64,000 bases of DNA. It comes from Candidatus Kaiserbacteria bacterium (lineage in GTDB: Bacteria; Patescibacteriota; Minisyncoccia; Phycocordibacterales; UBA918). The stretch covers positions 448,317-512,316 of the forward strand of contig CP064968.1 in NCBI GenBank assembly GCA_016699245.1. Reading direction: 5' to 3'. The notes beneath the pieces are model-generated. The model saw only the letters and a program-made list of their open reading frames with translations. It was not told the origin of the DNA and searched no databases. Position numbers and translations under genes: made by a program. Each line of letters opens with the position of its first letter. Within the stretch, counting starts at the first letter, position 1. This document shows, in pieces, positions 23,380-64,000 of the stretch.

Positions 23380-23380
23380 C

Positions 23381-27747: not shown

Positions 27748-27848
27748 ACGATATGGACTTTTATCTTATTTTTTAATAATTATAGAATATCTTAACTATT
27801 GTAGCCCTTAATGACACTCCGTGGAAGAGACCCTGTGGATATAGAATT

Positions 27849-28160
27849 TCACGGACTAAAAAGAGACGATTGAAGCATGGTAAGAATTCCCCAAACAGAA
27901 ATCATTATAACGAATGCAATGACACCCACAATGACCACATTTTTACCACTTTTAACACCTTCAGCACTCCCACCATCAATAATCCATCCTTTCACGACAC
28001 CCCATAAAAATGCAATAAAGGTAAGTACAAAAGTGAGTGTCACAAGCGTACCTAAAATGTTAGTGAGCAAAGACACGAGACTTTTGAAATCTGTTGGTGC
28101 ATTAGCACCGAGCGTTATCTGGGGAAGTAGTGCTAAAAGTGTGACTATAAAGATATGCAT
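27849..28160 (-). CDS. VirB2/TrbC-like pilin paralog 3
   Basis: FLWGVVK...GGSAEGVKSG...SVWGI. Confidence 0.5.
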   Translation of the reverse strand: MHIFIVTLLALLPQITLGANAPTDFKSLVSLLTNILGTLVTLTFVLTFIAFLWGVVKGWIIDGGSAEGVKSGKNVVIVGVIAFVIMISVWGILTMLQSSLFSP

Positions 28161-28174
28161 AAAATGTATTCGTG

Positions 28175-28531
28175 TTAGAGGGCTCCTGCTGTCTGTTGTA
28201 TCACATCCACAATAATCTTAGCACCGAGGACTATCACACCGCCAACCACTGCCCACAGAAGCGCGGTGCGTGCTTCGGTTACTTTACCAGGGTTACCCTG
28301 TGCAGTCACAAAGAGATACCCTGCGTACATGATGTAGAGAATTATGAGCGGGAGTGCAAAGACGAGGAGGATATCGATAATATTAAGCAAAAACTCCGGA
28401 ATATCTTTTGCTTTAAGCCAATTAATAAATTTTCCATCGTCAGCAAACACAGCGTGCGGTATGTAAAGTGCACTCAATATACATGTATATGTATACAGAC
28501 ATTTTTTCATATTGTTTGGCATGGATGTCAT
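28175..28531 (-). CDS. VirB2/TrbC-like pilin paralog 4
   Basis: C-terminal ~80 aa differ by only 3 residues from paralog 5; N-terminal ~40 aa unrelated. Confidence 0.5.
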   Translation of the reverse strand: MTSMPNNMKKCLYTYTCILSALYIPHAVFADDGKFINWLKAKDIPEFLLNIIDILLVFALPLIILYIMYAGYLFVTAQGNPGKVTEARTALLWAVVGGVIVLGAKIIVDVIQQTAGAL

Positions 28532-28548
28532 GTACGCTATTATTAAAT

Positions 28549-28902
28549 TTACAACGCACGCGCTGTCTGTTGTATCACATCCACAATAATCTTAGCAGCA
28601 AGCACAATCACGCCACCAACCACTGCCCACAGGAGAGCGGTGCGTGCCTCCGTTACTTTACCAGGGTTACCCTGTGCAGTCACAAAGAGATATCCTGCAT
28701 ACATGATATAGAGAATTATGAGCGGGAGCGCGAAAACGAGGAGAATGTCAATGATTTTAAGCAAGAACTCAGGGATGGTCTTTGAACTCAGCGGATTAGT
28801 CAGGGTAGCACCTTGAGCAAAGGTCACAAAAGGTAGATATAAAGGGCTAAGTGTAAATACTCGAATTACATATTTATGTATTTTTGTAGATATAGGCGAC
28901 AT
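28549..28902 (-). CDS. VirB2/TrbC-like pilin paralog 5
   Basis: As paralog 4. Confidence 0.5.
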   Translation of the reverse strand: MSPISTKIHKYVIRVFTLSPLYLPFVTFAQGATLTNPLSSKTIPEFLLKIIDILLVFALPLIILYIMYAGYLFVTAQGNPGKVTEARTALLWAVVGGVIVLAAKIIVDVIQQTARAL

Positions 28903-30233: not shown

Positions 30234-30971
30234 CTATTTCTTATGACAAAGGAGACCGTAGTGGTGGTCACCTGCGGAAAATGTACCTTCACAGGAAAAA
30301 CCTGCCTGCTCAAGAAGACTTCGAGCATCAGTCTCACTAAAAACATCTTCAGGGCGAGGACCAAGACCACCAAATGAATCCGTCCAATCAATGACGAATA
30401 ATTTTCCACCTTTTCGGAGTACGCGCGCCACTTCGGTGAGTGCAGTATCTTTACGGACAAACTGGAAAAGAATGTTTGAAAGAAGACCTGCATCGAGGGT
30501 ACCATCGTTGAATTTTGTACCGCCTGGAGCTTCAATATCGCACCACACAGGTCGTATGTTATTGAGACGCTGCTCTGCTGCTTTGGTACCAAGAGCGTCA
30601 ACAAGATTTTTTTGAATCTCACATGCGTACACTATGCCACTTAAGCCTACGGCACTTGAAAGAGGCTTTAAATATGCTCCACTACCCGCGCCAAAATCTG
30701 CGACGACATCACCTTCCCGCAAATGGAAATGGGTAACGGTATTCTCTGGGTCTACAAACCTTCCAAGTTGGGTAGGATACATATGTACAGTATACAGGGT
30801 CGCAGGGATATCGGTATGGGCAGTAGTGGAAAATGAGCCGGAACTGCAAAGCAGTTCTGGCTCATTTTCACACACTCCCAAACGCGCAGCGCTGAGGAAA
30901 TTTGCTTGACTCCCAAACTTTCCAAAATTGATTGAGTACAAGGTGAGAAGCGAATACTTGGAGCTTCGCAA
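30234..30971 (-). CDS. class I SAM-dependent methyltransferase (true start may be the internal Met near 30782)
   Basis: VADFGAGSGAY motif I; 5' end of the ORF overlaps a repeat element. Confidence 0.65.
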   Translation of the reverse strand: MRSSKYSLLTLYSINFGKFGSQANFLSAARLGVCENEPELLCSSGSFSTTAHTDIPATLYTVHMYPTQLGRFVDPENTVTHFHLREGDVVADFGAGSGAYLKPLSSAVGLSGIVYACEIQKNLVDALGTKAAEQRLNNIRPVWCDIEAPGGTKFNDGTLDAGLLSNILFQFVRKDTALTEVARVLRKGGKLFVIDWTDSFGGLGPRPEDVFSETDARSLLEQAGFSCEGTFSAGDHHYGLLCHKK

Positions 30972-31150
30972 GAGGTTGTCGATATTTTATAAAAATATCA
31001 TACAACCTGAACAGCGACCGTAGGTCGGGCAAGAAAATGAAGACGAGGCGTGAGAAAGTCTGGGAGACTTTCGCAAGACCTTGAACAGTTTCTGTGAAAG
31101 GTTTACCGTCTCTGTAAGAGACAGATGTACGATGAGTCTTCATTTTTGCA
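30942..31150 (+). repeat. structured repeat element family, copy C (core 30973-31008; CTGTAAG hairpin at 31102-31117)
   Basis: GGTGAGAAGCGA lead-in, then the core module, then TTCGCAAGACCTTGAACAG; same modules as the 63.1 kb copy but in swapped order. Confidence 0.6.
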
Positions 31151-42318: not shown

Positions 42319-43575
42319 ATGGAACAAATTAAAACAGACGTTGAGTCATTCGCTCGGATACGCGTAGTAGGTGTCGGTGGTTCTGGAAACAACGCCGTTA
42401 ATTACATGATTGGGGCAAAGGTGAAGGGAGTCGAGTTTATCGCTATCAATAGCGACTCACAAGACCTTCATCATTCACTCGCAAAAAAGAAAATCAACAT
42501 TGGTAAGAATCTTACCCGTGGTCTTGGTGCAGGAGGCAATCCCGACATGGGTCGTCGTGCTGCTGAAGAGACACGTGAAGAAATTGCAAATGCAATCAAA
42601 GGTTCCGACATGATCTTCATCACCGGTGGTATGGGTGGTGGTACTGGTACTGGTGCTGCACCGGTGGTGGCAAAGATTGCGCGCGAGACAGGTGCACTCA
42701 CCGTGGGAGTAGTAACCAAACCTTTCCTCTTTGAAGGACAAGAGCGTATGCGCCTTGCGCTTCAGGGTATCGAAGATCTTAAAAAAGAAGTAGACGCACT
42801 CATCACTATTCCGAACGACCGACTCCTCGCTATCGTCGACCGCGAGACGAGCGTCAAGGCGGCATTCGAACTCTGTGACAATGTACTCAAGCAAGCAGTG
42901 GAAGGTATCTCAGACCTTATCACCATGCCAGGTATCATCAACGTAGACTTCGCCGACATTCGTTCCGTCATGGAAAACGCAGGTTCTGCACTTATGGGTG
43001 TTGGACTTTCTACGGGTGAAAAACGCTCGGAGGAGGCAGCACGGGCAGCCATCAATTCTCCACTCCTCGAAGTCTCTATTACGGGCGCAAAGGGAGTACT
43101 CTTTGCAATTGCGGGAGGTGATGACCTTGGTATGCTCGAGATTCAAGATGCAGCACGCATCATCACCGAGTCTATTGACCCTCATGCAAAGGTTATCTTT
43201 GGTGCTATCAAAGACGAAAAACTGAAGAAGAATGAGGTGCGTGTAACTGTAATTGCTACAGGATTTCCTGAGTCAGACACGGGACACCATCTGCCCCATG
43301 TGCGCATGACAAACGAACGAAAAGCGCCAGAATCTATTCCCGAGGAAAAACTAGAGACACGTGGTCGCATTTTCAATTCGATAAGTGCTCCACGAACTCA
43401 GGAGCCAGTTCCTGTCGCTTCGGAGCCGACTATGACACGCGAAGAATCTCGCCCACAAATACAGCAACAATCTCCCGGACAACGTGAACCAAAACCCATC
43501 GACGCCATCGACGAAGAGAACGATGACGATTGGGGCGCAGTTCCAGCATTTTTGCGCAGATCCAAACTTAAATAA
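42319..43575 (+). CDS. ftsZ: cell division protein FtsZ
   Basis: [13 protein letters not shown] tubulin signature. Confidence 0.95.
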
Positions 43576-43642
43576 GTTTGGATTGCACAAAAATGTGGAA
43601 CTGCGGGCCGGAGCGATATGAGTCGACCCTTCCTAGGGCGAC

Positions 43643-46696: not shown

Positions 46697-46840
46697 GACG
46701 CGAGAGGGGGGATTCGAATCTTTTCGTTCACTGGAACGCGGCACAGATTCTGTTCAGGTTGTATGATAGTTTCTCCTTGCAGTCGAAACTTTCGACAACC
46801 TTTTCGAATCCCCCGCGTAAGCTCCCCCGGAGCTTACTCT
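46697..46840 (-). repeat. structured repeat element family, copy D (inverted; core 46756-46801) bounded by a 12-bp inverted repeat GGGGGATTCGAA/TTCGAATCCCCC and ending in a tRNA 3'-end-like TCCCCCCTCTCGCGTCCA
   Basis: Shares the CTGTGCCGCGTTCCAGTGAACGAAAAG tail with copy B. Confidence 0.6.
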
Positions 46841-46980
46841 CTTCCGCCAACAAAATATGCCCCTTGCGGGGCTATTTTGTATTGGCAGGCATCGTAGGTT
46901 CAGTATCAGAGCGGTGAGATGATGTAAGGATATTTGAGGATTGTTTTAAGAGTTGAAATGAGGTATGTGGGTTGGAGTAT

Positions 46981-47778
46981 TTAAATCCTTTCACTGGGAC
47001 TTGGAACTGTAGCGGCATGTGCTTCAACTAATTCAAAAGTGTATAAACCGTCTTCGTCCTTAAAAAATCTTGCCATAGATGGTAATTCCTCATCGGAAAG
47101 CTTTGTGAATTCTTTCGTACCGTAGTTATGATACTGGCCCATAAGATATTCAATCCTGCCCGAAGTGATACCAGGAATCTGTCTCTTTATATTCTCTCCC
47201 ATCGGATGCTGTTCGTCAGGTTCATTATCAAAAGTAATCGGTTCAGTCTTCGTGTGAAGATTTCCTGCAACTACGAGAGTCGGTACGTCTGAAAGATTGT
47301 TGAGAATATTTTCCGCCATAGCCGCATCTCGCGCATTCCATCCGTATCCACCAGAACCTCCGTCAAAACAGACAAGTCCTTCAAGCATTCCTTCGGACTT
47401 AAGCTTCTTAAGGAGAGCAAAGTGGCCTGCGGTGATGCGTCCATCCGGACTATCCTTAATAGCATCAAAATCAAGCTCTCCCGATTGCAGATACCTTTCA
47501 GCGACTGTTTTAAGCTCTGGCTCCCATTCTAGGGCAAGTTGGCGGAAGCCGAATTTCTTGAACAGTGTGTAAATTACATCTGCATTCTCTTTTACTCCGT
47601 GCATTTCGCCCAAGATGAACAGTTTGGTGTTTCCTATACTCTCCGCAAGTTCTTGAATTGACTGTTTATCAAATATGGTGGGAACTTCTTCAACTAAAAC
47701 GGAAGAAATCGTCTCAATAAATGAGTTTTTATCACCTTCCAGATTCCTTTCTTGTTTTGGCTTTTCAAACTTTTCCAT
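46981..47778 (-). CDS. ChaN/Tiki/TraB-superfamily protein (GEMHG motif), function unknown
   Basis: ILGEMHG motif; weak. Confidence 0.35.
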   Translation of the reverse strand: MEKFEKPKQERNLEGDKNSFIETISSVLVEEVPTIFDKQSIQELAESIGNTKLFILGEMHGVKENADVIYTLFKKFGFRQLALEWEPELKTVAERYLQSGELDFDAIKDSPDGRITAGHFALLKKLKSEGMLEGLVCFDGGSGGYGWNARDAAMAENILNNLSDVPTLVVAGNLHTKTEPITFDNEPDEQHPMGENIKRQIPGITSGRIEYLMGQYHNYGTKEFTKLSDEELPSMARFFKDEDGLYTFELVEAHAATVPSPSERI

Positions 47779-47830
47779 GACTTAATTTTAGCTCAGATCA
47801 AGCTTTTTAGGTACTCGGGTCTGCCGATAC

Positions 47831-47964
47831 TAAGTTCTATTGGCGGAAGAGGGGGGATTCGTCCTGACGGTCACTAATTCGCTGACGCTCATAAGTGCCG
47901 CGGGACACGACTCGCCGGCCCAGAGGGGCCCCGGCTCCGTCGTTCGAATCCCCCCTCTTCTCGC
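47831..47964. repeat. inverted-repeat element with arms copied from the tRNA-Ser 3' end: TGGCGGAAGAGGGGGGATTCG...(84 nt GC-rich)...CGAATCCCCCCTCTTCTCGC
   Basis: 16-bp perfect arms at 47836-47851 and 47945-47960; the left arm is the exact complement of an acceptor/T-stem 3' end plus CCA (primer-binding-site-like). Confidence 0.6.
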
Positions 47965-48008
47965 AACATGCAACAAACCCAATGCTTTCGCATTGGGTTT
48001 GGCAGTTG

Positions 48009-48095
48009 CGGAAGAGGGGGGATTTGAACCCCCGATCGAGTCTCCCCGATGCCGGTTTTCGAAACCGGTGCACTAAACCACTATGCGACTCTTCC
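48009..48095 (-). tRNA. tRNA-Ser (CGA), long variable arm
   Basis: Acceptor GGAAGAG/CTCTTCC, anticodon stem CCGGT/ACCGG, loop TTCGAAA, T-arm GGGGGTTCAAATCCCCC; terminator hairpin at 47970-48000. Confidence 0.75.
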
Positions 48096-48386
48096 AAATG
48101 TATGAACTATTAAACTAGCATTTTTTCCAATTTTTCGGTAGTATAGCGAGGTTCGGATTGTATTGTCCCTTACTAGGACGAACGAGGTGTCATGTAGGAG
48201 TTTTACTCATACTTGCACCGAGTGACGTCCTAGCAAGCTCTGCTTGCAGGGACTGTACACCTTGTCGATATTTTTCTTCAGCTCACGCCTTGAAAAATAT
48301 CAGGCAAGGTCTTGCGAAAGTCCCCCAGACTTTCTCACCCATCGTCATCGACGATGTGGCCGTACAAAATTCAAAGAATTTCGTCC

Positions 48387-48603
48387 GGCCCCATCGTCTA
48401 ACGGTGGCCAGAAATTAAAGAGCGCAAGCGATTATAATTTCTGAGTGGCCTAGAAGTTACTGAGCGCAAGCGACAATAACTTCTGGTCTGCCTACTTTTT
48501 CTTTCAAAATGAAAAAGTAGGCCAAGTCACTTTTTCTTCTTCCCAGAAGAAAAAGTGACGCACACGGCAAGACTAAAACTACAATGATGCAAAAGGTACA
48601 TAC
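48387..48603 (+). repeat. tRNA-Glu 5' fragment (19 nt, 48387-48405) followed by a four-hairpin cassette (48409-48443, 48452-48484, 48490-48522, 48526-48558)
   Basis: GGCCCCATCGTCTAACGGT is identical to tRNA-Glu nt 1-19; hairpins 1-2 carry GAGCGCAAGCGA loops; hairpins 3-4 have 12-15-bp stems. Confidence 0.6.
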
Positions 48604-48675
48604 GGCCCCATCGTCTAACGGTTAGGACATCAGGTTTTCATCCTGGAAATCGGAGTTCGATTCTCCGTGGGGTCA
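48604..48675 (+). tRNA. tRNA-Glu (TTC)
   Basis: Acceptor GGCCCCA/TGGGGTC, anticodon stem TCAGG/CCTGG, loop TTTTCAT, T-arm CGGAGTTCGATTCTCCG. Confidence 0.7.
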
Positions 48676-50368
48676 CATCCAGAGATTTATCATCTCTATT
48701 CTCATCACTTACCTTGAAAAACAAGGATATTTTAGGTGTTCCACTAAGTACTTCTTTGTAGGTCGGAAACTCCAAGAATAGTATCTTGTAAATTGCCATC
48801 TGTTCGGCATAACTACTTATATCTAGGAACATATCTATAGGGTGTTCCATTAGATTTTTTGAGTACTCTAAGAACAAGGTGACTTCTTCGTAACTCAACT
48901 CAATTTTCTTCCTTTCACCCTGCACTTGTCGTAAATCCATACTTAGTCTTTCAAAATCCCTCTCCATCTCGTCTTTCACCAACTCAGAGTTTGATTTCTT
49001 GATTGCAGTCAGCGTTTCTCTCAGTTCAGATTGGATTCCTGTGATTCTCTGGTTTATTACAATTTGAGTATCAAGCGATTTCTCCTGTTCTTGTTTATGT
49101 TTATGAGTAAGGACTTTTTTTAAGATAGAATGGTACTTATCACTAAACTTAATTTTACTCAAAAAGGTCATCATTGCCTTATCAACCTCACTTTGAGGTT
49201 TCCCGTAATATTTATGTGTACGGCTACAATGATAAAAAGAATATTTCTCCTTATTTTTGCTTGTCGATGGACTTGCTAAAAAAGGTTTTTTACAGACATC
49301 GCACAAGACTACATTCTTAAACAGGTAATCTTTACGGAACTTCTGTCTTCTCTTGAGTATTTTCTCAGGGTTTAAGTCGTAAAAGAGTTTGATTTTGTTT
49401 TCTGGTAATTCCTCAACATACACTTTGCCCTTGTTGGCTTGATTAAACTTCTCGATGCTAACCAATCCCTTGTATTGGGTCTTTGTGATTATTTTCTTTT
49501 TTTGAATCTTGCCCCAATTCTCAATATTGACTCCGCAGTAGATAGGATTTTTCCTGTACTTCTGCATTTGCTTGATTGTAAGTTTATTGCCTACTTTTAC
49601 ACCGATTATTCTTTTGTCACCCTTTTTTCCATTCCAAAGTTTCCTATCTCTTGATTTGTAGCCAAGCGAGTTTATGTGGTCTACGATTTCTTGTTCTGTT
49701 AAAACTCCCTCAACGGTTTTATCAAAAAGAGCAATGATTTGAGGTGCTTCCTGCTCGTGTGGAAGTTGTATTGTTTTTTGCTTTCCGTCATTAGCAAGAA
49801 TAACGACATTTTTATAACCATAATTAGCTTCTCTTAACTTGAAGCCAAGACTAGCTCTTGAGAAGCTCGTGTTTACAGTTCTAGTAAGGATATTTGCAAC
49901 ATCTTCTTTGCCCATCTCTGCAAGCAGTATTTCAGTGATACGACTTGGGCTCTTATTACTCCAATCAAAGGAAATGCCAAGATGTTCAAGAGTGTTTGAT
50001 ATTGGCTGGATTATATTTTGACTATCACGAAGTTCAACACCAAGACTTGCTAATTGGCTTTTTATTAAAAGATATTCTTCACTACCAGAGCGAGTACTCC
50101 TATCAATCCTGTTTATAACAAAATACTTTATTTTGTTAGGATTTTTCTTAATTAAATCAATCAGTTCATTATATTTTGGTCTTTTTGCTACTTCAACTTT
50201 TCTACCAGTAAAGATTTCTCTACTTACTTTCCCATCAGGAAAAAGAGTCCAGTGATTATTCTCGATATGACGCTCAATAGCTTTTATTTGATTCTCTAAG
50301 CCGTCACCCTTAAGCTGACTAGGGTCACTGATTCGAGCATATCCAATTGCGTAGATGGGATGGGTCAT
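48638..50368 (-). CDS. large serine recombinase (phage-type integrase)
   Basis: N-terminal YARISDPSQ catalytic Ser motif, recombinase domain, zinc ribbon CDVCKK...YHCSRT, coiled coil; last 13 codons are antisense to the tRNA-Glu T-arm. Confidence 0.85.
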   Translation of the reverse strand: MTHPIYAIGYARISDPSQLKGDGLENQIKAIERHIENNHWTLFPDGKVSREIFTGRKVEVAKRPKYNELIDLIKKNPNKIKYFVINRIDRSTRSGSEEYLLIKSQLASLGVELRDSQNIIQPISNTLEHLGISFDWSNKSPSRITEILLAEMGKEDVANILTRTVNTSFSRASLGFKLREANYGYKNVVILANDGKQKTIQLPHEQEAPQIIALFDKTVEGVLTEQEIVDHINSLGYKSRDRKLWNGKKGDKRIIGVKVGNKLTIKQMQKYRKNPIYCGVNIENWGKIQKKKIITKTQYKGLVSIEKFNQANKGKVYVEELPENKIKLFYDLNPEKILKRRQKFRKDYLFKNVVLCDVCKKPFLASPSTSKNKEKYSFYHCSRTHKYYGKPQSEVDKAMMTFLSKIKFSDKYHSILKKVLTHKHKQEQEKSLDTQIVINQRITGIQSELRETLTAIKKSNSELVKDEMERDFERLSMDLRQVQGERKKIELSYEEVTLFLEYSKNLMEHPIDMFLDISSYAEQMAIYKILFLEFPTYKEVLSGTPKISLFFKVSDENRDDKSLDVTPRRIELRFPG

Positions 50369-51539: not shown

Positions 51540-52475
51540 TTATCGCCAAAACATCAACTGCTTAAAAAAGCCAACCACTTTCTGCACAAAATCCTCTTGT
51601 GGTTGCTCTGGCGTAGGTATTTCTTCAACCACTGGAAGTTGAGTAACTGGAGTTGTTGTAGGAGCCACTAAAACCTCCGACAGTTCTTTTGGCTCAGGTG
51701 GAGCTATATCAGGCGTCACAAGTGGTTTTTGAGCTATTGCGGGTGATACCACTGACACCTCCTTTGGAAGCGACTCAAGATACTCATCGTGCTGTGCTGT
51801 ACCCTCCTTTCCGTTCGGGTATTTTTGGTAATACAGAACCGCAATTCTGTCAGAAATATCAGGTCTGCTCGCTTTTATTCTCCCAAAGAAGTCTCTGGCG
51901 TCTGCGAGGGATAGTGAATCCATATAGACAAATCCTTCGTAAATATCAGCATCAGTGAATACCTCAGGGGTACTGTATGACTCCATCTGCTCATCAAGGA
52001 GCTCTTGATATTCCTCAATCTGTGAGAGGTTTTGCTTTTGTAACTCTAGGATTTGCTGACGTAATTTTTCAGCCTCTTTCTCAGCTTTTGCAAGAGCAGA
52101 GACTTCTGACGAGTGCTCATCTTTCTCGTCTTCAAGTTCACTTATTTGGGCATCGTACTTTGCATCAATCTCAGCAAGCTTGGCATCGAGTTGATTCCCG
52201 ATACCATAGCTTCCGTACAGTCCCGTAACATATCGCTTCTCCGTATCACGCTCTGCTTCAAGTGCTTTAATACGAGCATTGATAGTATCGACTGAAACCT
52301 GAGGACTGTTTGCGATTTGTGCCTCAAGCGTTTGGAGTCGATACTCCAGAGCTGAGAGTGCTTCATTCTGCTTTATCCCTACATCAGCAGGGAGATAGTT
52401 GTAGTCGGTGGCGTGTGCTACTGAGAAAAGACATAGGAAAAGTAATGTCGATATTGAAAAGGTTGTTTTTTGCAT
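51540..52475 (-). CDS. secreted coiled-coil protein
   Basis: Start moved to MQKTTFSISTLLFLCLFSVAHA (signal peptide); long EAEK-rich coiled coil. Confidence 0.45.
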   Translation of the reverse strand: MQKTTFSISTLLFLCLFSVAHATDYNYLPADVGIKQNEALSALEYRLQTLEAQIANSPQVSVDTINARIKALEAERDTEKRYVTGLYGSYGIGNQLDAKLAEIDAKYDAQISELEDEKDEHSSEVSALAKAEKEAEKLRQQILELQKQNLSQIEEYQELLDEQMESYSTPEVFTDADIYEGFVYMDSLSLADARDFFGRIKASRPDISDRIAVLYYQKYPNGKEGTAQHDEYLESLPKEVSVVSPAIAQKPLVTPDIAPPEPKELSEVLVAPTTTPVTQLPVVEEIPTPEQPQEDFVQKVVGFFKQLMFWR

Positions 52476-52502
52476 AGGGATGGGTTTGCAATTTAGGCAG
52501 GA

Positions 52503-52610
52503 ACATAAAGCTCCCCGCCAGTGATGCCTTGCGACACCTGTACCTGTTTCCAGATACAACCCATCCCTGAGTGCTCTGACGAGGAGCTTTATATCAGGGA
52601 TGGGTTTTAT
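52503..52610 (-). promoter_or_regulatory. leader region with mutually exclusive hairpins (attenuator or riboswitch-like)
   Basis: AAAGCTCCCCGCCAG (52507-52521) pairs with CTGACGAGGAGCTTT (52576-52590); overlapping stem AACCCATCCCTGA (52557-52569) / TCAGGGATGGGTT (52595-52607). Confidence 0.35.
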
Positions 52611-52738
52611 TTGTACCGTATCTTGCCGAGGCAAGACCTTAGGTAACTATGTTGTGGCTGGTAATTTTATTTCATCTGTGGATTGATAATATCAAAAAAT
52701 CCCGCTATAGACCAGCTTATTTTCTGCTTTATTTTTTA

Positions 52739-55725: not shown

Positions 55726-55763
55726 CTTACCGTATATTGTACACCTGTTACATATACGGTAAG
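55726..55763 (+). terminator. near-palindrome CTTACCGTATATTGTACA-CC-TGTTACATATACGGTAAG plus T-run; paralog of 23733-23776
   Basis: Read directly. Confidence 0.6.
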
Positions 55764-55821
55764 TGCTTTTTTAGTGCATAAAAAAATCCTGGGGTGCGCC
55801 CATGCACACATTACAACATTA

Positions 55822-56515: not shown

Positions 56516-56540
56516 GAAAACTACCTAGTTCATCAAAACC

Positions 56541-56578
56541 AAGGTTAAACCTCGGGCTAGCCCGAGGTTTAACCTTTT
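56541..56578 (+). terminator. 17-bp-stem palindrome AAGGTTAAACCTCGGG-CTAG-CCCGAGGTTTAACCTT plus T; identical copy at 59658-59697
   Basis: Read directly. Confidence 0.75.
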
Positions 56579-56661
56579 GCTGGAGGGCTCTGTACATGAT
56601 GCACTCTATGTGCTCTACTAGTGACTAGTAGCACTTTTACAATCATTCAAGGAGCATTGCC

Positions 56662-57540
56662 GTGAGCAAAAAAACTAGCGAGCATGAACTCGAGCCGTAT
56701 GCAGAAAGAGCATCGATTTATATATTTCAAGGAGATGCTAGAAAATTTAAACTTCTGAAACCCGCGGAGGAATATGCACTGGCAATAGAAAACCAAAATG
56801 GAAATAAAGCGGCGCGAGAGAGACTCATTCTCTGTAACCTGCGTCTCGTTGTGAACCAGGCGCGAAAGTTTAGTCGATCACCAGAGCAATTTGCTGATTT
56901 TGCACAATGTGGAAGTCTTGGATTACTCAAGGCGGTCAAGCATTTTGATCCGAAAAGAGGTATACGATTTTCGACCTATGCCTATAATTGGATAAATAGT
57001 GCCATCTTCAAGGCATTTTACAAATCATCGGCAGTGCTGATATCGCAAAGTATCTGGGCCGACATGCGTCGCATACTCAAAGCTGAATATGCACTCATGG
57101 TAGCGGAGCCTGAGAAAAATGTAACCAATCGGCGCATTGCAGAAAAACTTGGTCTTCCTGAAAAGCGCGTACGAGAACTTCGAGGAAGTTATCGTGCGTA
57201 TTCAATGGATAGTGAGCATGGAGATAGAGATGAAAGTACCTTGCATGACACTATTGCGGATACAAAACAAGATGTACCAAAGTCTGTTGCGAATAGGGAT
57301 CTCATTTCGAAACTACTTTCGTTAATTGACCATGCGAAGATAGCAGAAAAAAAGAAACCCTTGGTGCGAGAAGCGCTTATACGAAAGTTCGGCCTTACGA
57401 ATTGTGGTATTGATGATTGTTATGAACAAACAATCACTGAGATTGCTGAAGCAATGAACATAACACCACGAGAGGTTTTGGCCTGTTTGAAACTAGGCCA
57501 GCGGGTACTCAGACAACTCGGAAAAAAACTAGTCGAATAA
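56662..57540 (+). CDS. sigma-70 family RNA polymerase sigma factor
   Basis: Region 2 (LRLVVNQARKF...TYAYNWI) and region 4 HTH (ITEIAEAMNITPREV). Confidence 0.75.
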   Translation: MSKKTSEHELEPYAERASIYIFQGDARKFKLLKPAEEYALAIENQNGNKAARERLILCNLRLVVNQARKFSRSPEQFADFAQCGSLGLLKAVKHFDPKRGIRFSTYAYNWINSAIFKAFYKSSAVLISQSIWADMRRILKAEYALMVAEPEKNVTNRRIAEKLGLPEKRVRELRGSYRAYSMDSEHGDRDESTLHDTIADTKQDVPKSVANRDLISKLLSLIDHAKIAEKKKPLVREALIRKFGLTNCGIDDCYEQTITEIAEAMNITPREVLACLKLGQRVLRQLGKKLVE

Positions 57541-57664: not shown

Positions 57665-57749
57665 ATATCACCATATAACCGATACTATAATTTGCACTTT
57701 AGTGTATACTGCTCACTTAAATTATTATTACAATACTGAAATATACGTT

Positions 57750-59176
57750 ATGAAGAAGTGTTTTAACTCAAAAACTAAAATCGTCGCGACGCTCGGGCCT
57801 AATTCCACAGACGTAAAAGTAATCGAAAAGATGATTCTTTCGGGACTTAATGTGGCACGTATCAATATGAGCCATGGTGATTATACCGAGCATGCGCTCA
57901 AGATTAAAAATGCGCGCGCCGCTGCCGCAACTCTGAAACGACCACTTGCAATTCTTCAGGACCTCTCTGGCCCGAAAATTCGCATCGGTGACTTTGCAAC
58001 GGAGACGGTGACGCTCGTCCCCGGAGAAAAAATTACGCTCACCACAGAAAAATGCGTGGGGACGGTGTCTCGTGTATCACTCAACTACGCAAAACTTCCC
58101 AAGGAAGTAGAGCCCGGAATGGCGATTTTCCTCAATGATGGCAAATTAAAACTTGTGGTTGACTCATGCACCGACACCGAAATAGTAACCACTATCATTC
58201 ACGGAGGCACGATTCGCGGACGACGCGGAGTGAATGTACCCGATGCAAATCTCTCTATCTCTTCTCTCACACCAAAAGACAAAAAGATCTCGTGTGGGGA
58301 CTCACACAGAATCCTGACTTTGTTACTCTTTCCTTTGTGCGAAATGCAGCAGACATTCATCTGCTTCGAAAACTCATTAACAAGGACAAGAAACGACAAA
58401 TCATGATTGTTGCAAAAATTGAGACGAAGTATGCTATCGAAAACTTGCAGGAAATTATCGATGCAACCGATGCAGTGATGGTAGCTCGTGGCGACCTTGC
58501 TATTGAAGTTCCTCCAGAAAAGGTACCTCTTCTCCAAAAGCGCATCATTCGTGCTGCAAACCTTGCAGGAAAGCCAGTCATTACTGCCACACAGATGCTC
58601 GACTCAATGAAGACAGAGGCAACACCTACGCGTGCTGAAGTAAGCGATATCGCAAACGCAATCCTCGATGGTACTGATGCCATCATGCTTTCTGATGAAA
58701 CCGCAATCGGTGTTCATCCTGAGCGTCCTGTGGAGGTAATGTCACGAGTTGCGCGTGAAGTAGAGACAGATGCATTCTTTAGCGAACGAATGACCCAGTG
58801 GGAATTCAAAGCAAAAGAGACGTACGAGGCACTTGGAAAGTCGGTTGCAAAGACAGTTATCACCACCGATGCAAAGGCTATTGTAACCTTTAGTGAAAGT
58901 GGTCTCACAAGCCGTATGGTAGCAAGATACAAGCCGATTGTGCCAATCTTTGTACTCACACCCAACAAGGCAGCATATGCTCAGAGTCTTATATCTTTCG
59001 GATGTGAACCAGTACTTATTCATAAAGTACAGAATCTCGCTGATGCGCAAAAGGTGGCGCGTAAGGTACTCTCTGAGTACAATGTCGCGACTAAGGGGGA
59101 TGTGTTTGTACTCGGCGCGGGAATTCCCTTTGGAAGTTCTGGTGCAACCAATATGATGCTCGTTGAGCGAATCTAA
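57750..59176 (+). CDS. pyk: pyruvate kinase, interrupted by a 1-nt frameshift in the A5 run at 58281-58285
   Basis: KIVATLGP, NMSHG; one extra A restores LTPKDKKDLVWGLTQNPDFVTLSFVR. Confidence 0.85.
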
Positions 59177-59657: not shown

Positions 59658-59697
59658 CCAAGGTTAAACCTCGGGCTAGCCCGAGGTTTAACCTTGG
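59658..59697. terminator. palindrome CCAAGGTTAAACCTCGGG-CTAG-CCCGAGGTTTAACCTTGG (copy of 56541-56576)
   Basis: Read directly. Confidence 0.75.
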
Positions 59698-59707
59698 TCT
59701 GGATATA

Positions 59708-61546
59708 CTACTCTGTCAAAAAGCCTCCGGCTTGATGTTCCCAGAGACGGGCGTAGGTGCCTCCAGCATTTGCGAGGGTTTCGTGAGTCCCATCTTCGAT
59801 AATAGCACCGTTTTCGAGGACGACAATTCTATCCATTTCGCGAAGTGTTGAAAGACGATGTGCAATCGCAATCACTGTCTTCCCTTTCATGAGTTCCTGC
59901 AGTGCCTTTTGTATTGCCACTTCGCTTTCACTATCAAGTGCACTCGTAGCCTCGTCGAGAATCAGTATTGGGGAGTTTTTTAAAATAGCCCGAGCAATCG
60001 CAATACGTTGCTTTTGCCCACCCGAGAGTTTCACCCCACGCTCACCCACCAGCGTGTCGTACCCCTCACTGATTGCTGAAATAAAGGTATGTGCCTGAGC
60101 CTTCTCTGCTGCGTTTTCTATTTCTTCTTGTGTAGCTTGGGGCTTGCCATACGCAATATTTTCGCGGATAGAACGGTGAAAGAGGAGTGGCTCCTGAGGC
60201 ACAATGGCGATGTGGTTGCGGAGTGAATCCTGTGTAATCATACTGATGTTTTGTCCATCAATACTGATATTTCCTTCTTGCACTTCGTGTTGACGAAGAA
60301 GAAGTGAGACAAGAGTGGTCTTGCCGGCGCCACTTGTACCCACAAGCCCCACCCGCTCGCCCGAGCGTATGGCGAGAGAAAAATCTTTAAATACCGGTTC
60401 ATTTCCATATGCAAAATGCACATGGTCGCACACTATTGCTCCTTCCCGCACAACAAGTGGCACTGCGCCTTCGGTATCGAGAATCTCGTGGGGCACGATG
60501 ATATCAGTAAGTCCTTCTTCAATTTCTGCATAGCGACGAATAAAACCGTTCATACTCATACCAATAAAGACCAAGGTACTCTGCACATTCATCATGAGTG
60601 TTGCAATCATAATGAGTTCACCCGTGGTGAGTTGTGTACTTATCCAAAGCTTCACCGATATAAAAAGCATCGCAGCCTCAAAGAGCACAATAATGGCATT
60701 ATTGAGCAAAAGCCCCCACTCACTGATGCGCCATTGTTTTATATTGAGACGACGCATCTCGTCGATATGCGCTTCAAAGGCGTTTTTTTCTTCATCCATC
60801 CGCACGTACTGGCGAATGGCGGCCATGTTGGAAATAGCATCCACGGCGTAGCCACGTGCTCTTGTTGCCTGTGCCGAAAACTCCACCACATGCGGGCGTC
60901 GAAGGCGCGCAAGCACGATATTGAGCGGCACGAGAATTACAATGAGTCCGATGAAGATAAAGGCGATAGTCGGACTCGAAAACCAGATAAATCCCACCGT
61001 AAAAATAAGTCCGAGAACTGAGGGGACGTAACTCCACATAAATGCCTCAAAAAGCGACTGTACCCCCTCACTCGCATGACTTATCTTGCTTGAGAGGGAG
61101 CCAGCAAATCGATCGGCAAAGTACGCGTGGCTGTGGTGCGCGAGGTACCCGAAGAGTGTCTTGTACGCAGTGGCGTTTGCGCGACTTGCCCACTCCATAC
61201 CAATAAAACCACTCAAGCGCCATGAGACAAATGTGAGTGCGGTCATGAGTGGAAAAAGAATCACCACGAGCCAGATGTCGGTCTGCACTGCTTCGCCGCG
61301 CCCTATCTCGCCCGCCGTATCAATAAACATCTTGAAAATATACGGAATACTCGTACCCGCGAGTTCCGCCACAAAAATCACGAGGAGTACACCAAAAAGC
61401 CACTTCGCGTGCGCGTGCGAGACATGCTTCATGAAAGCAAACGGCCGACTCAAAGCCAGCTTCATTTCTATTTCTTTCGTTTCGGTATGCATAATTATAT
61501 CTGACGTAGTATACCTGTCTTTCTTGCAAGAAAAAACCGGCGACAC
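59708..61546 (-). CDS. ABC transporter permease/ATP-binding fusion protein (MsbA-like exporter)
   Basis: 6-TM domain plus Walker A GTSGAGKTT, LSGGQ, Walker B ILILDEATS; the true start may be an internal Met. Confidence 0.85.
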   Translation of the reverse strand: MSPVFSCKKDRYTTSDIIMHTETKEIEMKLALSRPFAFMKHVSHAHAKWLFGVLLVIFVAELAGTSIPYIFKMFIDTAGEIGRGEAVQTDIWLVVILFPLMTALTFVSWRLSGFIGMEWASRANATAYKTLFGYLAHHSHAYFADRFAGSLSSKISHASEGVQSLFEAFMWSYVPSVLGLIFTVGFIWFSSPTIAFIFIGLIVILVPLNIVLARLRRPHVVEFSAQATRARGYAVDAISNMAAIRQYVRMDEEKNAFEAHIDEMRRLNIKQWRISEWGLLLNNAIIVLFEAAMLFISVKLWISTQLTTGELIMIATLMMNVQSTLVFIGMSMNGFIRRYAEIEEGLTDIIVPHEILDTEGAVPLVVREGAIVCDHVHFAYGNEPVFKDFSLAIRSGERVGLVGTSGAGKTTLVSLLLRQHEVQEGNISIDGQNISMITQDSLRNHIAIVPQEPLLFHRSIRENIAYGKPQATQEEIENAAEKAQAHTFISAISEGYDTLVGERGVKLSGGQKQRIAIARAILKNSPILILDEATSALDSESEVAIQKALQELMKGKTVIAIAHRLSTLREMDRIVVLENGAIIEDGTHETLANAGGTYARLWEHQAGGFLTE

Positions 61547-62981: not shown

Positions 62982-63109
62982 TATTTTCCCCTTTCCATAA
63001 GGAACTATAGAGTTTTATATTATGGCCTATATTAGTATATATGTCAACACTTGTTATGTGGCTTGTTTGCTTGTTTTTGTAGCGGGCTCACGTATACTTG
63101 TAGTTACCC

Positions 63110-63342
63110 GCGCGGTTAGCTCAGCTGGTAGAGTGAGAAATGGGTGAGAAGCGAGTTTACGCAGCTTCGCAAGACCTTGAGCAGTCTCTGCGAAAGGTGT
63201 ACAGCGACTGTAAGTCGGGGACCCATTTCGCAAGAGGTTGTCGATATTTTGACGTAAGGAAAAATATCATACAACCTGAACAGGTCCTGTTAAGGACTCA
63301 CATTGAGCGCAAAGGTGAGAAAAAGATACAAATGAATAGTAT
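63110..63342 (+). repeat. tRNA-Val 5' fragment (24 nt, 63110-63133) followed by repeat element copy E (core 63235-63277; CTGTAAG hairpin 63196-63208)
   Basis: GCGCGGTTAGCTCAGCTGGTAGAG is identical to tRNA-Val nt 1-24; then GGTGAGAAGCGAG, TTCGCAAGACCTTGAGCAG and core modules. Confidence 0.6.
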
Positions 63343-63415
63343 GCGCGGTTAGCTCAGCTGGTAGAGCATCACATTGACATTGTGGGGGTCACAGGTTCAA
63401 GTCCTGTATCGCGCA
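63343..63415 (+). tRNA. tRNA-Val (GAC)
   Basis: Acceptor GCGCGGT/ATCGCGC, anticodon stem TCACA/TGTGG, loop TTGACAT, T-arm ACAGGTTCAAGTCCTGT. Confidence 0.75.
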
Positions 63416-63423
63416 CCGAGGGA

Positions 63424-63534: not shown

Positions 63535-63617
63535 GAAAAACCGCGAGGCGGGGTCGAGAGTGCTTAGTAAAATAAACACAAAGTGTTTGATTTTACTTAG
63601 CAACTCGTGACCACTGG
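63535..63617 (+). repeat. second copy of the GCGAGGCGGGRTCG / CTTAGTA...ACTTAG repeat (see 43643-43720)
   Basis: Alignable over ~80 nt with substitutions. Confidence 0.5.
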
Positions 63618-64000
63618 GCGCGATACGCCGCAACTGTTGCGGATGCAACAGGAGGACGGACTTTCAATCTTCCTAGGGTTAACCTAGGGAGATTTGTAGC
63701 ACAAACAAATGAGAAAATGAGACAGTAATGAACCCCACCCCAAGATAAATGGGTCTTGTGAACCGTACCCCCTTTTCTCTGACTTCCTTTTCTTCTGAAA
63801 TGTAGTAGTATGTATACATATGAATCAAAAACTTTTGGAAACAAACGAAAGCAACCGTTCGGTTATTTCCGTTCATACAAAACCTGAGACGAGTAAGAGA
63901 CTAGACGCCCTCTCTTTACTCACTCGTCGTTCGAAGTCGTTTCTTGCAAACGATGCTATTGAACGATATCTCGCAGAAGAGGAGGCTTTTGTAGCGTCGG

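Follow-up and report, generated by a model that had tools for sequence, protein, structure and literature searches.

Tyrosine integrases that enter tRNA and tmRNA genes are said to fall into sublocation classes, reportedly laid out by Williams in 2002. To our knowledge, none of the known integrases leaves fragments of a tRNA 5' end. The Islander database (PMC4383910) covers genomic islands and prophages found in such genes, and archaeal examples have been described (PMC9897764). Like these islands, which insert at the anticodon or T-loop, the hairpin cassettes reported here enter at a loop, regenerate the gene, leave a displaced fragment and accrete in tandem. The direct repeat likewise consists of a regenerated tRNA segment and a displaced fragment with a breakpoint in a loop, but at tRNA-Glu and tRNA-Val it has a 5' polarity that is not known from islands. 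Islands are kilobases long, encode an integrase and regenerate the 3' part of the gene from a copy that they bring, whereas the cassettes are 100-230 nt long and non-coding, have a conserved hairpin cargo and regenerate either the 5' or the 3' part. They also contain an inverted copy of the target (X') and are found at the 3' end of rplL.

Cassettes share other features with small repeats. REP/BIME, REPINs, Correia, BOX, RUP, ERIC and Rickettsia palindromic elements are likewise short, non-coding, modular, multicopy and built of hairpins. Nesting is possible in small repeats and MITEs too, and some bring promoters or terminators. However, small repeats and MITEs make duplications of 0-10 bp or none, do not target tRNA loops and, unlike cassettes, do not regenerate gene ends with 15-60-nt copies. 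The cassettes have neither inverted repeats common to all copies nor a target-site duplication of fixed length, which are hallmarks of MITEs, and a MITE survey makes no mention of Patescibacteria or tRNA targets (PMC11602168).

The hairpins recall integron attC sites and the XerCD system of CTX-phi, by analogy only. The resemblance lies in imperfect hairpins, with shape conserved over sequence and variable terminal loops. A conserved asymmetric internal loop also resembles attC, and an X'/X pair resembling the inverse core and core flanks the hairpin. Like integron cassettes, ours stand in an array beside a fixed site and encode no recombinase. Unlike integrons, they target the T- or D-loop of a tRNA (GTTCRAN) and not GTTRRRY or dif, and their cargo is a gene end plus terminator rather than an ORF. 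The cassette junction falls between G and TTCRAN in the T-loop and X' ends in ...YGAA; these do not match the integron cores RYYYAAC/GTTRRRY. Transformable bacteria can also insert foreign DNA through one short homologous anchor, by homology-facilitated illegitimate recombination. A gene end could be such a single anchor, but this process predicts no conserved hairpin cargo, loop-specific breakpoints or inverted X'.

Group I introns have been described at unusual positions in Patescibacteria tRNA genes, with no mention of duplications or hairpin repeats (PMC13011429). These share with the cassettes the phylum and the interruption of tRNA genes at unusual positions. In contrast to cassettes, group I introns are spliced, are larger, are recognised by Rfam and do not duplicate the gene; at our loci, an intact tRNA stands beside the insert and part of the exon is duplicated. 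Literature searches returned no description of such cassettes.

Filled and empty sites at tRNA-Glu and tRNA-Val

The window, the whole 64,000-nt stretch of DNA that was analysed, contains an intact tRNA-Glu(UUC) gene at 48604-48676 on the forward strand (ARAGORN; Rfam, 60.4 bits). The earlier note had claimed that the 5' ends of this gene and of a tRNA-Val gene are duplicated about 220 nt upstream, and both duplications are real. For tRNA-Glu, GGCCCCATCGTCTAACGGT is found at 48387-48405 (+), where it forms a dead fragment of nt 1-19, and again at 48604-48622. This is an exact 19-nt repeat (20 nt with the preceding C included) with 217 nt from start to start. Folding of the spacer (MFE -80.9 kcal/mol, z = -9.1) gave the same four hairpins that had been noted before, at 48410-48442, 48452-48484, 48490-48522 and 48526-48559, and GAGCGCAAGCGA is the loop of the first two. 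Together with an A/T-rich tail, which holds a -10-like TACAAT at 48580-48585, they make up the inserted cassette at 48406-48603 (+).

This cassette is absent from three related genomes of Saccharibacteria, a lineage of the candidate phyla radiation (L003, L004 and L262). Their tRNA-Glu is uninterrupted, so a clean insertion of 217 nt follows tRNA position 19 in the window. The fragment stands where the intact tRNA of relatives begins, and the DNA upstream of it (48243-48386) shares 92% identity with that immediately 5' of the L003 tRNA-Glu. The window tRNA-Glu itself is 100% identical to that of L003. Elsewhere, the Glu-type first hairpin and its junction recur in L176 and L223, after '...GTCTAAYGGT'. 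Exact-protein look-ups of gyrA, VIT1 and the recombinase gave no match and the closest VIT1 contigs end before the tRNAs, so the Glu insertion itself was not recovered in a second assembly.

A native promoter-like motif, TTTCGGTAGTATAGCG, lies at 48143-48158 (+). It is conserved in the window, L003, L004 and L262, and in the empty site of L262 it lies 22 nt 5' of tRNA-Glu. Its position and its likeness to a -10 element suggest that it would serve as the promoter of tRNA-Glu. The spacer between tRNA-Ser and tRNA-Glu, which measures 72 nt in L262, 119 nt in L004, 218 nt in L003 and 508 nt in the window, also holds an older cassette on the reverse strand (48160-48362), which L003 shares and which L004 and L262 do not have. 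Within it lie two hairpins, one of A type (48310-48338) and one B-like (48260-48309), together with tRNA-Glu nt 1-12 in inverted orientation (48350-48361) and a nested hairpin insertion of 74 nt (48173-48246) that is missing from L003.

For tRNA-Val(GAC) (63343-63417, +; 66.3 bits), GCGCGGTTAGCTCAGCTGGTAGAG is found at 63110-63133 (+), as a dead fragment of nt 1-24, and at 63343-63366, an exact 24-nt repeat with a spacing of 233 nt. A -10-like TATACT lies 12 nt 5' of the fragment. When the window was searched with 2 mismatches allowed, the Glu and Val segments had exactly two occurrences each, with 0 matches expected from 100 shuffles.

The Val spacer (fold z = -3.9) begins with hairpin A (63135-63231, +), whose loop holds a nested A-B-C-like cassette (63145-63218) that is missing from L256 and L152. 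It is followed by hairpin B (63235-63277, +; AGGTTGTCGA...loop...TCATACAACCT), the module that defines the family, and by hairpin C (63282-63298, +), which has a stem of 5-6 bp and the loop TGTTA where the family has (T)GTA(A). The spacer had been assigned to a repeat element family, and the same hairpins are indeed present at five other sites in the window (20960-20995, 23031-23065, 23529-23563, 30973-31008 and 46756-46801). The tail of the cassette (63298-63342, +) consists of TCACATTGA, directly after hairpin C at 63298-63306, and an A/T-rich stretch with TACAAAT. TCACATTGA corresponds to tRNA-Val positions 27-35, a match of marginal significance (p about 0.03-0.05 in three orthologues), and in its place L152 keeps tRNA positions 31-42. 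The 24-nt fragment is probably the uninterrupted head of a longer dead copy.

Filled Val sites with diverged sequence were found in four independent assemblies (L255, L256, L195 and L152), all with the same promoter and, in L255 and L256, with the same upstream gene. L148 and L003 have empty sites without the 5' cassette. The fragments have decayed in L195 and L152, and the hairpins persist there. Native signals remain with the fragment: the terminator after the Val fragment of L003 is orthologous to the one immediately 3' of the window tRNA-Val.

The 3' version, the cassette family and rplL

The earlier note had regarded duplication of the 5' end as the special feature of these loci. That part did not stand, since a mirror-image 3' version occurs at four other tRNAs in the window (Cys, Ser, Lys and Leu(CAG)) and 3' duplication was about twice as common in a wider census (26 vs 13). 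In gene order, the tRNA-Cys locus (20920-21120, -) has the tRNA (21048-21120), a new terminator (21016-21043), X' (GGGATTTGAA, 20997-21006), hairpin B (20960-20995) and a displaced 3' fragment (20920-20941, a 22-nt repeat). The tRNA-Ser locus (47843-48095, -) has the tRNA (48008-48095), a terminator (47974-48001), Y'X' as an inverted copy (47943-47964), a cargo whose hairpin (47874-47894) has a GAGCGTCAGCGA loop, and a displaced 3' fragment (47843-47859). Two Logan contigs from other sequencing runs (L001 and L002) are 100% identical to window 46739-47898 and confirm the part of the Ser cassette at 47843-47898.

At tRNA-Lys (22799-23116, +), the tRNA end is part of the stem of the terminator that comes after the tRNA (22799-22872), with Y' at 22915-22923. 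Further downstream are X' (22949-22960), hairpin B (23031-23065) and, in degenerate form, a 3' fragment (23104-23116). At tRNA-Leu(CAG) (23298-23639, +), the tRNA (23298-23380) and its terminator are followed by X' (23427-23438) and hairpin B (23529-23563), and beyond these by a fossil 3' fragment (23619-23639). This fragment matches the 3' end of the L199 tRNA-Leu(CAG) at 21/21 positions and differs from the live gene of the window, a difference consistent with an element-borne replacement segment. Judged by such comparisons, the fragments are fossils of the resident gene, as seen for Leu(CAG) in the window and for Val in L152. The cargo cores of the Lys and Leu(CAG) cassettes are about 95% identical, the level that copies within a genome can reach, and where two loci have a core in common the borders (X' and the last hairpin) are locus-specific.

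Some cassettes have no adjacent tRNA. Two members of the family lie downstream of gyrA (30930-31130, +), one of them within a terminator-like hairpin (ATGAAGAC/GTCTTCAT). An orphan cassette with tRNA-Ser-like arms can be read at 46700-46848 (-), downstream of a protein-coding gene, with Y', X', hairpin B (46756-46801) and a distal fragment. A scan of the window for displaced copies of protein-gene 3' ends found only tandem paralogues and a palindromic ftsZ terminator.

Across the family, the modular hairpins have conserved GNA/GNRA-type loops, such as GCGAAGC and (T)GTA(A). The pattern of hairpin B matched more than 120 metagenomic loci. Its inner stem covaries (92% paired, vs at most 76% with shuffled partners), its 1x2 internal loop, with C opposite NT, is conserved, and beyond the stem the length of its loop varies between 0 and 23 nt. 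Hairpin C has a perfect 5-bp stem in 98 of 116 copies, with 60 different arm sequences. Near tRNAs (within 300 nt), which make up only about 9% of the sequence, we found 61 of 126 module copies.

To count self-copies, 120 metagenomic loci holding the hairpin module, with 95 tRNAs, were compared with 71 controls. Flanking self-copies were present at 51 of the 95 tRNAs (13 of the 5' end, 26 of the 3' end and 4 of both), compared with 3 of the 71 controls, none of which had an end copy. The architecture thus recurs beyond this assembly, as the earlier note had expected of a genuine feature. Breakpoints lie in the D-, anticodon and T-loops: fragments end at tRNA positions 15-24, comprise the last 12-24 nt (mode 19-22) or break in the anticodon loop. 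Each repeat is anchored to a gene end; repeat lengths vary from 12 nt to over 60 nt, and a promoter (L176) or a terminator (L144) may be part of the repeat. Cassette cargo recurs at more than 15 tRNA species. X', which lies beside the cargo, is complementary to the T-loop and T-stem of the adjacent tRNA itself, and the X'/X inverted segments are specific to each tRNA; complementarity of at least 9 nt was found in 20 of 40 own pairs, vs 4.6% of cross pairs. Tandem cassette arrays occur in L193, and nested hairpin insertions without a flanking repeat were also seen.

The source of the replacement end could be followed at rplL. L172 differs from L225 by a single fresh 206-nt insert at the rplL 3' end; in the 1 kb on each flank the two contigs differ by 1 and 0 substitutions. 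Over 24 nt, the new rplL end departs from the displaced copy at 4 synonymous sites, and it is the displaced copy that agrees with the empty site. As a synonymous variant, the new end shows that the cassette brings the replacement with it. Of 19 positions in the inverted copy, 18 agree with the new end and 15 with the old one. This cassette shares A-type and GAGCG-type hairpin modules with those at tRNAs. An end carried by the element, as proposed in the earlier note for a 5' half, is therefore established for this 3'-type case, and we infer that 5'-type cassettes bring their replacement end as well. The two copies of the Glu repeat, and of the Val repeat, are identical in the window, which fits an element-borne end and a target duplication alike.

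Proposed explanations for the gene-end fragments

Given the observed insertion polymorphism, recurrence, loop breakpoints and cassette structure, we think it probable that hairpin-rich cassettes hit tRNA genes and bring a replacement end, and that the upstream 5' fragments are displaced dead ends. The entry point would be a loop, namely the D-loop in Glu (after nt 19) and, in Val, the place where the D-arm ends (after nt 24), and the cassette would bring a substitute for the end that it interrupts. One flank would therefore have a complete tRNA again and the other would retain a fragment. For an insertion of the 5' type, this fragment would stay behind the native promoter with the live gene downstream of the cassette, and expression could depend on read-through, on a -10-like element of the cassette or on both. 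In the 3' type, the live gene would keep its promoter and gain a new terminator, and the old 3' end and native terminator would be displaced downstream. Since dead copies keep their target sites, they could be colonised again, giving nested and tandem cassettes.

The D-loop insertion proposed in the earlier note is supported by the precise empty sites and by the native promoter, which is located upstream of the fragment rather than of the intact tRNA. No terminator was found within 5' cassettes, and the native promoter lies upstream of both the fragment and the cassette. A sigma-70 promoter scan of the Glu and Val cassettes gave no convincing internal promoter, so a cassette promoter is suggested only weakly, by the -10-like hexamers.

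Several observations run counter to cassettes that bring their own ends. No recombinase, transposase or reverse transcriptase gene was found within or beside a cassette, and nested hairpin insertions have no flanking repeat. A separate version would be required for each of more than 15 tRNA species, and because the cargo core is shared but the borders are locus-specific, gene conversion or a target-templated step would be needed. Mixed results on the strand fit hairpins that act as DNA or as RNA. In addition, a number of dead copies are pseudo-tRNAs of almost full length, and in L211 unrelated filler sits where the duplication joins, which suits a prior tandem duplication. The fragment often appears to be the head of a longer pseudo-tRNA colonised by hairpins.

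Such a duplication could have come first. Part of a structure-prone tRNA gene would have been duplicated in tandem by replication slippage or template switching, and the dead copy would later have been invaded by loop-seeking hairpins; no element carries a replacement end in this scenario. We regard it as unlikely, although several loci fit it. Dead copies extend past the hairpins in L214 (positions 20-51), L211 (30-53), L144 (30-48) and L176 (36-53), and near-complete copies of a pseudo-tRNA-Thr are found in L224 and L243. The nested insertions in hairpin loops without a flanking repeat and the cargo core common to loci with locus-specific borders point the same way, as do direct-inverted-direct patterns and extended palindromic terminators, which are typical of template switching. 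However, rplL has just one insert in DNA that is otherwise the same, and the 4 synonymous differences in the new end mean that it cannot be a local copy. At tRNA-Glu the insertion forms one clean block directly flanked by the repeat, the 3' type comes with new terminators unrelated to the native ones, and the live Leu(CAG) allele is unlike its fossil.

It is less likely still that the cassettes are functional structured RNAs, either leaders and trailers transcribed together with the tRNA or tRNA-like minihelix RNAs, in which the copies of tRNA ends are mimics selected for a part in processing or regulation. The cassette is co-oriented with the tRNA in 49 of the 61 near-tRNA copies, the stems covary, the GNRA/GNA-type loops are conserved, and Y'X' can pair with XY to form an acceptor/T-stem-like helix. 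The upstream native promoter and the lack of a terminator in 5' cassettes would also allow transcription as a leader, but the 3' cassettes are located behind strong terminators. Tests of the strand were mixed: the whole-cassette fold slightly favours the sense strand, whereas hairpin B folds better antisense and G-U counts are equal. The persistence of hairpins beside decayed fragments in L195 and L152 argues against selected mimics. The cassettes are also not essential, since close relatives do without them, and the same architecture is found at the end of a protein gene, rplL. No Rfam family was matched: at the gathering score, Rfam 15 found only tRNAs and one LOOT RNA in the window, and permissive scans (E <= 1) added only weak sub-threshold matches, mostly to miRNA-precursor models and none to an intron model. 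Given the decay of the fragments and the absence of the whole structure from close relatives, we do not favour the structured leader mimicking a tRNA 5' end that had been offered as an alternative. A function in RNA is compatible with a mobile origin.

The scars of integrase islands or prophages, left as attL/attR remnants after deletion of the interior, are a very improbable source. Fragments beside regenerated tRNAs are a known signature of such islands (PMC4383910; PMC9897764), and a large serine recombinase (48638-50368), the sole recombinase in the window, abuts tRNA-Glu outside the cassettes, as does a region of about 10.5 kb that is absent from L003. This island, however, is on the 3' side of tRNA-Glu, and 5'-end fragments are unlike the products of known integrases. 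A conserved cargo of 100-230 nt at more than 15 tRNA species is not expected of random deletion remnants, and there are no integrase remnants. No ORF is present inside the cassettes, Pfam scans of 40 window proteins found no transposase or tyrosine integrase near them, no recombinase, transposase or reverse transcriptase was found in or beside them, and no IntI-like gene was seen in the window. The earlier suggestion of an integrase with a 5'-proximal att core thus falls away. The hairpin-module pattern had 0 matches in 2.9 million viral contigs, and blastn against annotated phages returned no cassette match. A 14-mer scan of viral contigs gave chance matches only.

Four narrower candidates were rejected. 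A tRNA-Glu split by the serine-recombinase island should leave a second 3' part, and none was found in the window with up to 3 mismatches. A phage attP mimic was discarded because 13 of 13 IMG/VR loci with the tRNA-Glu 19-mer are complete phage tRNAs. A cDNA of the mature tRNA does not account for the 3' fragments, as the distal fragments of genes without an encoded CCA are not followed by one either. A transposase making fixed-stagger duplications does not fit repeats of such variable length, some of them with a promoter or terminator. Finally, although the repeats are short (19-24 nt) and the assembly is of metagenome type, a collapsed repeat or chimeric join can hardly be the cause, because the diverged Val arrangement is present in four other assemblies, the Glu-type junction recurs in L176 and L223, the neighbouring Ser cassette sequence is identical in two other runs, dozens of loci have the same architecture, and the Glu flanks are orthologous to empty sites on both sides.

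For cassettes that bring a replacement end, the means of integration can be proposed only tentatively. By analogy with integron attC and CTX-phi, our preferred though doubtful guess is that a folded single-stranded hairpin is recombined by a recombinase encoded elsewhere. In a Campbell-type scheme, a small circle consisting of the tRNA 5' part, the cargo, the tRNA 3' part and a linker could cross over in either arm, which would yield both the 5' and the 3' types.

A possible class of miniature elements

The cassettes look like a widespread, apparently undescribed kind of miniature mobile element that replaces gene ends. It is possible, though doubtful, that they form a new class, integrase-less "gene-end replacement cassettes" with a length of about 100-250 nt, that move as folded single strands, with the hairpins as signals for recombination or replication and a recombinase acting in trans. 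Their targets would be the D-, anticodon and T-loops of tRNAs and, at the 3' end, conserved protein genes like rplL, and each cassette would supply a gene end plus a terminator or leader. A host or helper would provide the recombinase, possibly in the course of natural transformation, and most tRNA genes of Saccharibacteria would have had their expression signals remodelled.

If this is true, it points to a recombination activity that recognises tRNA-loop DNA or folded hairpins. Such an activity could be tested in Saccharibacteria that can be cultivated and might be worth exploring as a tool for site-specific insertion. Annotators would need caution over pseudo-tRNA pieces, and the cassettes would provide insertion markers at the strain level. 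The rule that elements target tRNA genes and regenerate the 3' part would gain an integrase-less miniature form with dual polarity. Many tRNA fragments, and part of the unusually long, structured intergenic DNA near tRNAs in these reduced genomes, would be explained. The tRNA genes and at least one ribosomal-protein gene would then routinely have their ends rewritten in a major uncultivated bacterial lineage.

Duplicated tRNA ends in the window and in related loci

ARAGORN and Rfam located eight tRNA genes within the window, including an intact tRNA-Glu(UUC) at 48604-48676 and an intact tRNA-Val(GAC) at 63343-63417. The earlier note held that the 5' ends of both are duplicated upstream, and this was confirmed: 48387-48405 is an exact repeat of tRNA-Glu nucleotides 1-19 (20 nt of identity counting the preceding C), and 63110-63133 exactly repeats the first 24 nt of tRNA-Val. 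With up to two mismatches tolerated, each segment has two copies in the window, compared to a chance expectation of 0. The Glu spacer, described in that note as four hairpins, two with GAGCGCAAGCGA loops, folded as such (z = -9.1). The Val spacer (z = -3.9) does belong to a repeat family, as proposed, since its hairpins recur at five further sites in the window.

These 5' cases are one part of a larger pattern, and mirror-image 3' duplications exist. In the window, the last 22 nt of tRNA-Cys are repeated 126 nt downstream and the last 17 nt of tRNA-Ser 165 nt downstream (start to start), and degenerate 3' fragments lie beyond similar cassettes at tRNA-Lys and tRNA-Leu(CAG). The tRNA-Val of a related contig, L003, has a 3' duplication across the same hairpin module instead of the window's 5' duplication.

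A structured search pattern built for hairpin B, the family-defining module, matched at least 120 metagenomic loci and none of 2.9 million viral contigs. One matching contig (1.03 Mb) also encodes a homologue of the window's VIT1 protein. Among the matches listed, 61 of 126 module copies had a tRNA gene no more than 300 nt away, although such zones make up just ~9% of the sequence, and 49 of these 61 were co-oriented with the nearby tRNA, typically 55-90 nt away. A masked census counted exact tRNA copies of 14 nt or longer. At the module loci listed, 51 of 95 tRNAs had copies of themselves in their flanks, compared to 3 of 71 in 1.2 Mb of control loci, where none was an end copy. This census found upstream 5'-end copies at 13 of the 51, the commoner downstream 3'-end copies at 26 and both at 4. 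More than 15 anticodon species were involved. Fragment boundaries fell at tRNA positions 15-24, in the anticodon loop, or in the last 12-24 nt, with a mode of 19-22 that corresponds to the start of the T-loop.

Uninterrupted sites and native promoter-like motifs

Relatives were retrieved with the neighbouring VIT1-family gene and are Candidatus Saccharibacteria MAGs. The VIT1-family proteins of L003 and L004 share 92% and 70% amino-acid identity with that of the window. tRNA-Glu is uninterrupted in both, and window 48243-48386, upstream of the Glu fragment, is 92% identical to the L003 DNA immediately 5' of tRNA-Glu. Therefore, the window contains a clean 217-nt insertion after tRNA-Glu position 19. 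In a third genome, L262, divergent tRNA-Ser and tRNA-Glu genes are just 72 nt apart. This spacer measures 119 nt in L004, 218 nt in L003 and 508 nt in the window, growth by successive, partly nested hairpin insertions.

The Glu promoter-like motif TTTCGGTAGTATAGCG is conserved and lies 22 nt 5' of tRNA-Glu in L262. tRNA-Val has no 5' cassette in L148 and L003, where a -10-like CTCTGGTATATT or CTCTGCTATATT is found 12 nt upstream. The order of -10-like element, fragment, cassette and tRNA is shared by the window and four other contigs (L255, L256, L195 and L152); the element is CTCTG-TATAKT in those four and TATACT alone in the window. The structure thus recurs across independent assemblies, contrary to the possibility that the fragments are confined to this one. 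Window 46739-47898 was also reproduced exactly by two Logan assemblies of other runs. Promoter-like motifs, CTCTG(G/C)TATA(T/G)T for Val and the Glu motif, occur at window 48140-48158 and 63070-63109 and in L148, L003, L255, L256 and L262. They lie just 12-22 nt or so upstream of the mature tRNA 5' end, so native tRNA leaders in these bacteria would be very short.

Cassette anatomy and dead copies

The 3' type is very regular: intact tRNA, new terminator (often long and palindromic), X', hairpin cargo, displaced 3' fragment and native terminator. X' is an inverted copy of the T-loop and T-stem of the adjacent tRNA, in some cases lengthened by an inverted acceptor-strand segment, Y'. This match is tRNA-specific: X' complementarity of at least 9 nt was seen in 20 of 40 own-tRNA pairs compared to 4.6% of cross pairs. 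The 5' type runs from the native promoter through the fragment, the cargo (often starting with (G)GAGTGAGA) and an A/T-rich tail to the intact tRNA.

The cargo is built of modules: hairpin A, with a loop of the GGGA type; hairpin B, of the form AGGTTGTCGA...TCATACAACCT; and hairpin C, whose 5-bp stem carries a (T)GTA(A) loop. A further type, with GAGCG(N)AAGCGA loops, builds the Glu cassette. In DNA, GCGAAGC and GNA loops are well-known mini-hairpins of exceptional stability. The parts left free by the hairpin B search pattern showed strong covariation. The inner stem of hairpin B was 92% paired, compared to at most 76% with shuffled partners. Among the matches listed, hairpin C had perfect stems in 98 of 116 copies, with 60 different arm sequences, compared to 17% in shuffles. 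Strand-asymmetry tests of the hairpins favored neither DNA-level nor RNA-level action, and no Rfam family or annotated phage matched the cassettes. Cassettes also nest in the loops of other hairpins without a flanking repeat, as at 48173-48246 (missing from L003) and 63145-63218 (missing from L256 and L152).

A recurrent module of GAGGCGGGGTCGA, a long A/T-rich hairpin and GACTNGTGAC(C) is found downstream of tRNA-Val at window 63545-63625 and L003 2290-2350, and at L172 3790-3852, the end of a cassette at rplL. An orphan cassette at window 46700-46848 (-), downstream of a protein gene (46981-47778) and 1.2 kb from the nearest tRNA-Ser, has tRNA-Ser-like Y' and X' arms and hairpin B, plus a distal fragment into which a hairpin is inserted. 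At tRNA-Lys (window 22864-22923), ftsZ (43555-43600) and downstream of tRNA-Val in L255, terminator stems reach into the upstream gene end, with an inverted copy of its last 9-22 nt after the terminator, an arrangement that seems to be widespread in these genomes.

Many fragments head a longer dead copy whose sequence resumes beyond the inserted hairpins, at tRNA positions 20-51 (L214), 30-53 (L211), 30-48 (L144) and 36-53 (L176). The continuation at the window's tRNA-Val (27-35) is marginal, and none follows the hairpins at its tRNA-Glu. At tRNA-Thr, 3' cassettes have near-complete pseudo-tRNAs as dead copies, in which A-B-C takes the place of the anticodon arm. Dead copies hold up to three cassettes (L227), an array in L193 is tandemly amplified, and two loci share a cargo core (~95% identical) with locus-specific borders. 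These arrangements could arise if cassettes integrate again and again into dead copies, whose target sites persist, and if cargos also undergo gene conversion with one another. The main rival, that duplication came first and hairpin colonization second, at least for some loci, also fits the long dead copies, multiple or tandem cassettes and shared core, and we consider it unlikely.

Movement and the origin of the live end

The window's genes are housekeeping (IF-2, RbfA, ClpB, GyrA, FtsA/Z, Pth and others), and none of them encodes a transposase, a reverse transcriptase or a tyrosine integrase; therefore, the cassettes must move in trans. The integrase sought to explain 5' insertion did not emerge in the window, which has just one large serine recombinase (576 aa, 48638-50368 (-); Resolvase N-terminal domain, E = 3e-12). 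Its frame runs into the tRNA-Glu 3' half, abutting the tRNA's 3' end. Its region, in which no split-tRNA signature was seen, is probably an element that integrated by way of the 3' side of tRNA-Glu; ~10.5 kb (48677 to about 59200) are missing in L003, which has 2.2 kb of other sequence instead. The L003-absent region holds a LOOT RNA (RF03000; 52523-52645 (-), 74.7 bits compared to a gathering score of 46.4) overlapping the 5' end of ORF 51540-52634, and overlapping ORFs (57702-58406 and 58166-59176 (+)) that by eye resemble a frameshift-split pyruvate kinase. ORF 56662-57540 resembles, by eye, a sigma-70-type factor. Near-identical long perfect palindromes, unrelated to the tRNA cassettes, occur at 56526-56584 and 59658-59710 (CCAAGGTTAAACCTCGGGCTAGCCCGAGGTTTAACCTTGG, bracketing ~3.1 kb) and at 23735-23773 and 55726-55764 (CTTACCGTATATGTAACACCTGTTACATATACGGTAAG). 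Elsewhere, a 366-nt unit is repeated three times in tandem at 12-970 (73-75% identity), probably within a coding sequence at the window edge, and four tandem small ORFs (103-118 aa) lie at 27391-28902 (-), at least the last two paralogous (374-nt period, 82% identity).

Cassettes might move as a small circle of tRNA 5' part, cargo, tRNA 3' part and linker, in which crossover in either arm would give the 5' or 3' architecture. Alternatively, a folded single strand could act as in integron attC or CTX-phi, its X':X stem mimicking a duplex T-arm, which would yield the exact order XY-terminator-X'-cargo-XY (X and Y being the direct segments). In the 5' type, whose cassettes hold no terminator, the native promoter may drive the tRNA by read-through. 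Hexamers in the cassette tail that are A-rich and -10-like (TACAAT at 48580-48585) may add to this; a consensus scan of 5' cassettes did not strongly support a promoter within them.

From sequence comparison, we argue that the live end comes with the cassette and that the resident gene's original end survives as the fragment, because the native promoter or terminator stays beside the fragment and because the Leu(CAG) and L152 Val fragments keep the other or common allele. The window's distal Leu(CAG) fragment (23619-23639) is 21/21 identical to the orthologue in L199 (2829-2911). The live gene (23298-23380), whose allele X' matches, differs from that orthologue in the acceptor stem, variable arm and T-arm. 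It seems that the entire live gene was replaced, or evolved quickly, while the fossil fragment stayed unchanged. At tRNA-Val of L152, it is the fragment and not the live gene that has the common acceptor sequence.

The most direct evidence that the live end is element-borne is a fresh insertion at the 3' end of rplL (bL12). Contigs L172 and L225 differ there by a single 206-nt insert (L172 3647-3852), and their 1-kb flanks by 1 and 0 substitutions. At the start of the insert, the last 24 nt of rplL are present in a new version, with four differences, all synonymous, from the displaced copy, which has the empty-site sequence. A terminator, an inverted copy (matching the new end at 18/19 positions and the old at 15/19) and hairpins of the tRNA-cassette families follow. 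Because the new end differs from the target, target-site duplication cannot produce this event. No displaced ends of protein genes were found within the window. The earlier note's element with a replacement end is partly supported, by the insertion after tRNA-Glu nucleotide 19 and, for the 3' type, by the end carried at rplL; for the 5' type, we infer the carried end.

The descriptive account of cassettes and displaced tRNA ends is well supported. tRNA-targeting integrative elements (PMC4383910, PMC9897764) share the logic of a loop breakpoint, a regenerated gene and a displaced fragment, but the cassettes are small and gene-less, with conserved hairpin cargo and an inverted target copy. The group I introns that interrupt tRNA genes of Patescibacteria (PMC13011429) are distinct from what is described here, and a MITE survey (PMC11602168) says nothing of such elements. 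Their size, lack of genes, hairpin cargo and inverted target copy, and most of all their use of a 5' end or a protein-gene end, set the cassettes apart from every known system found, and the rplL event extends the reach of the cassette system beyond tRNAs to a protein-coding gene.
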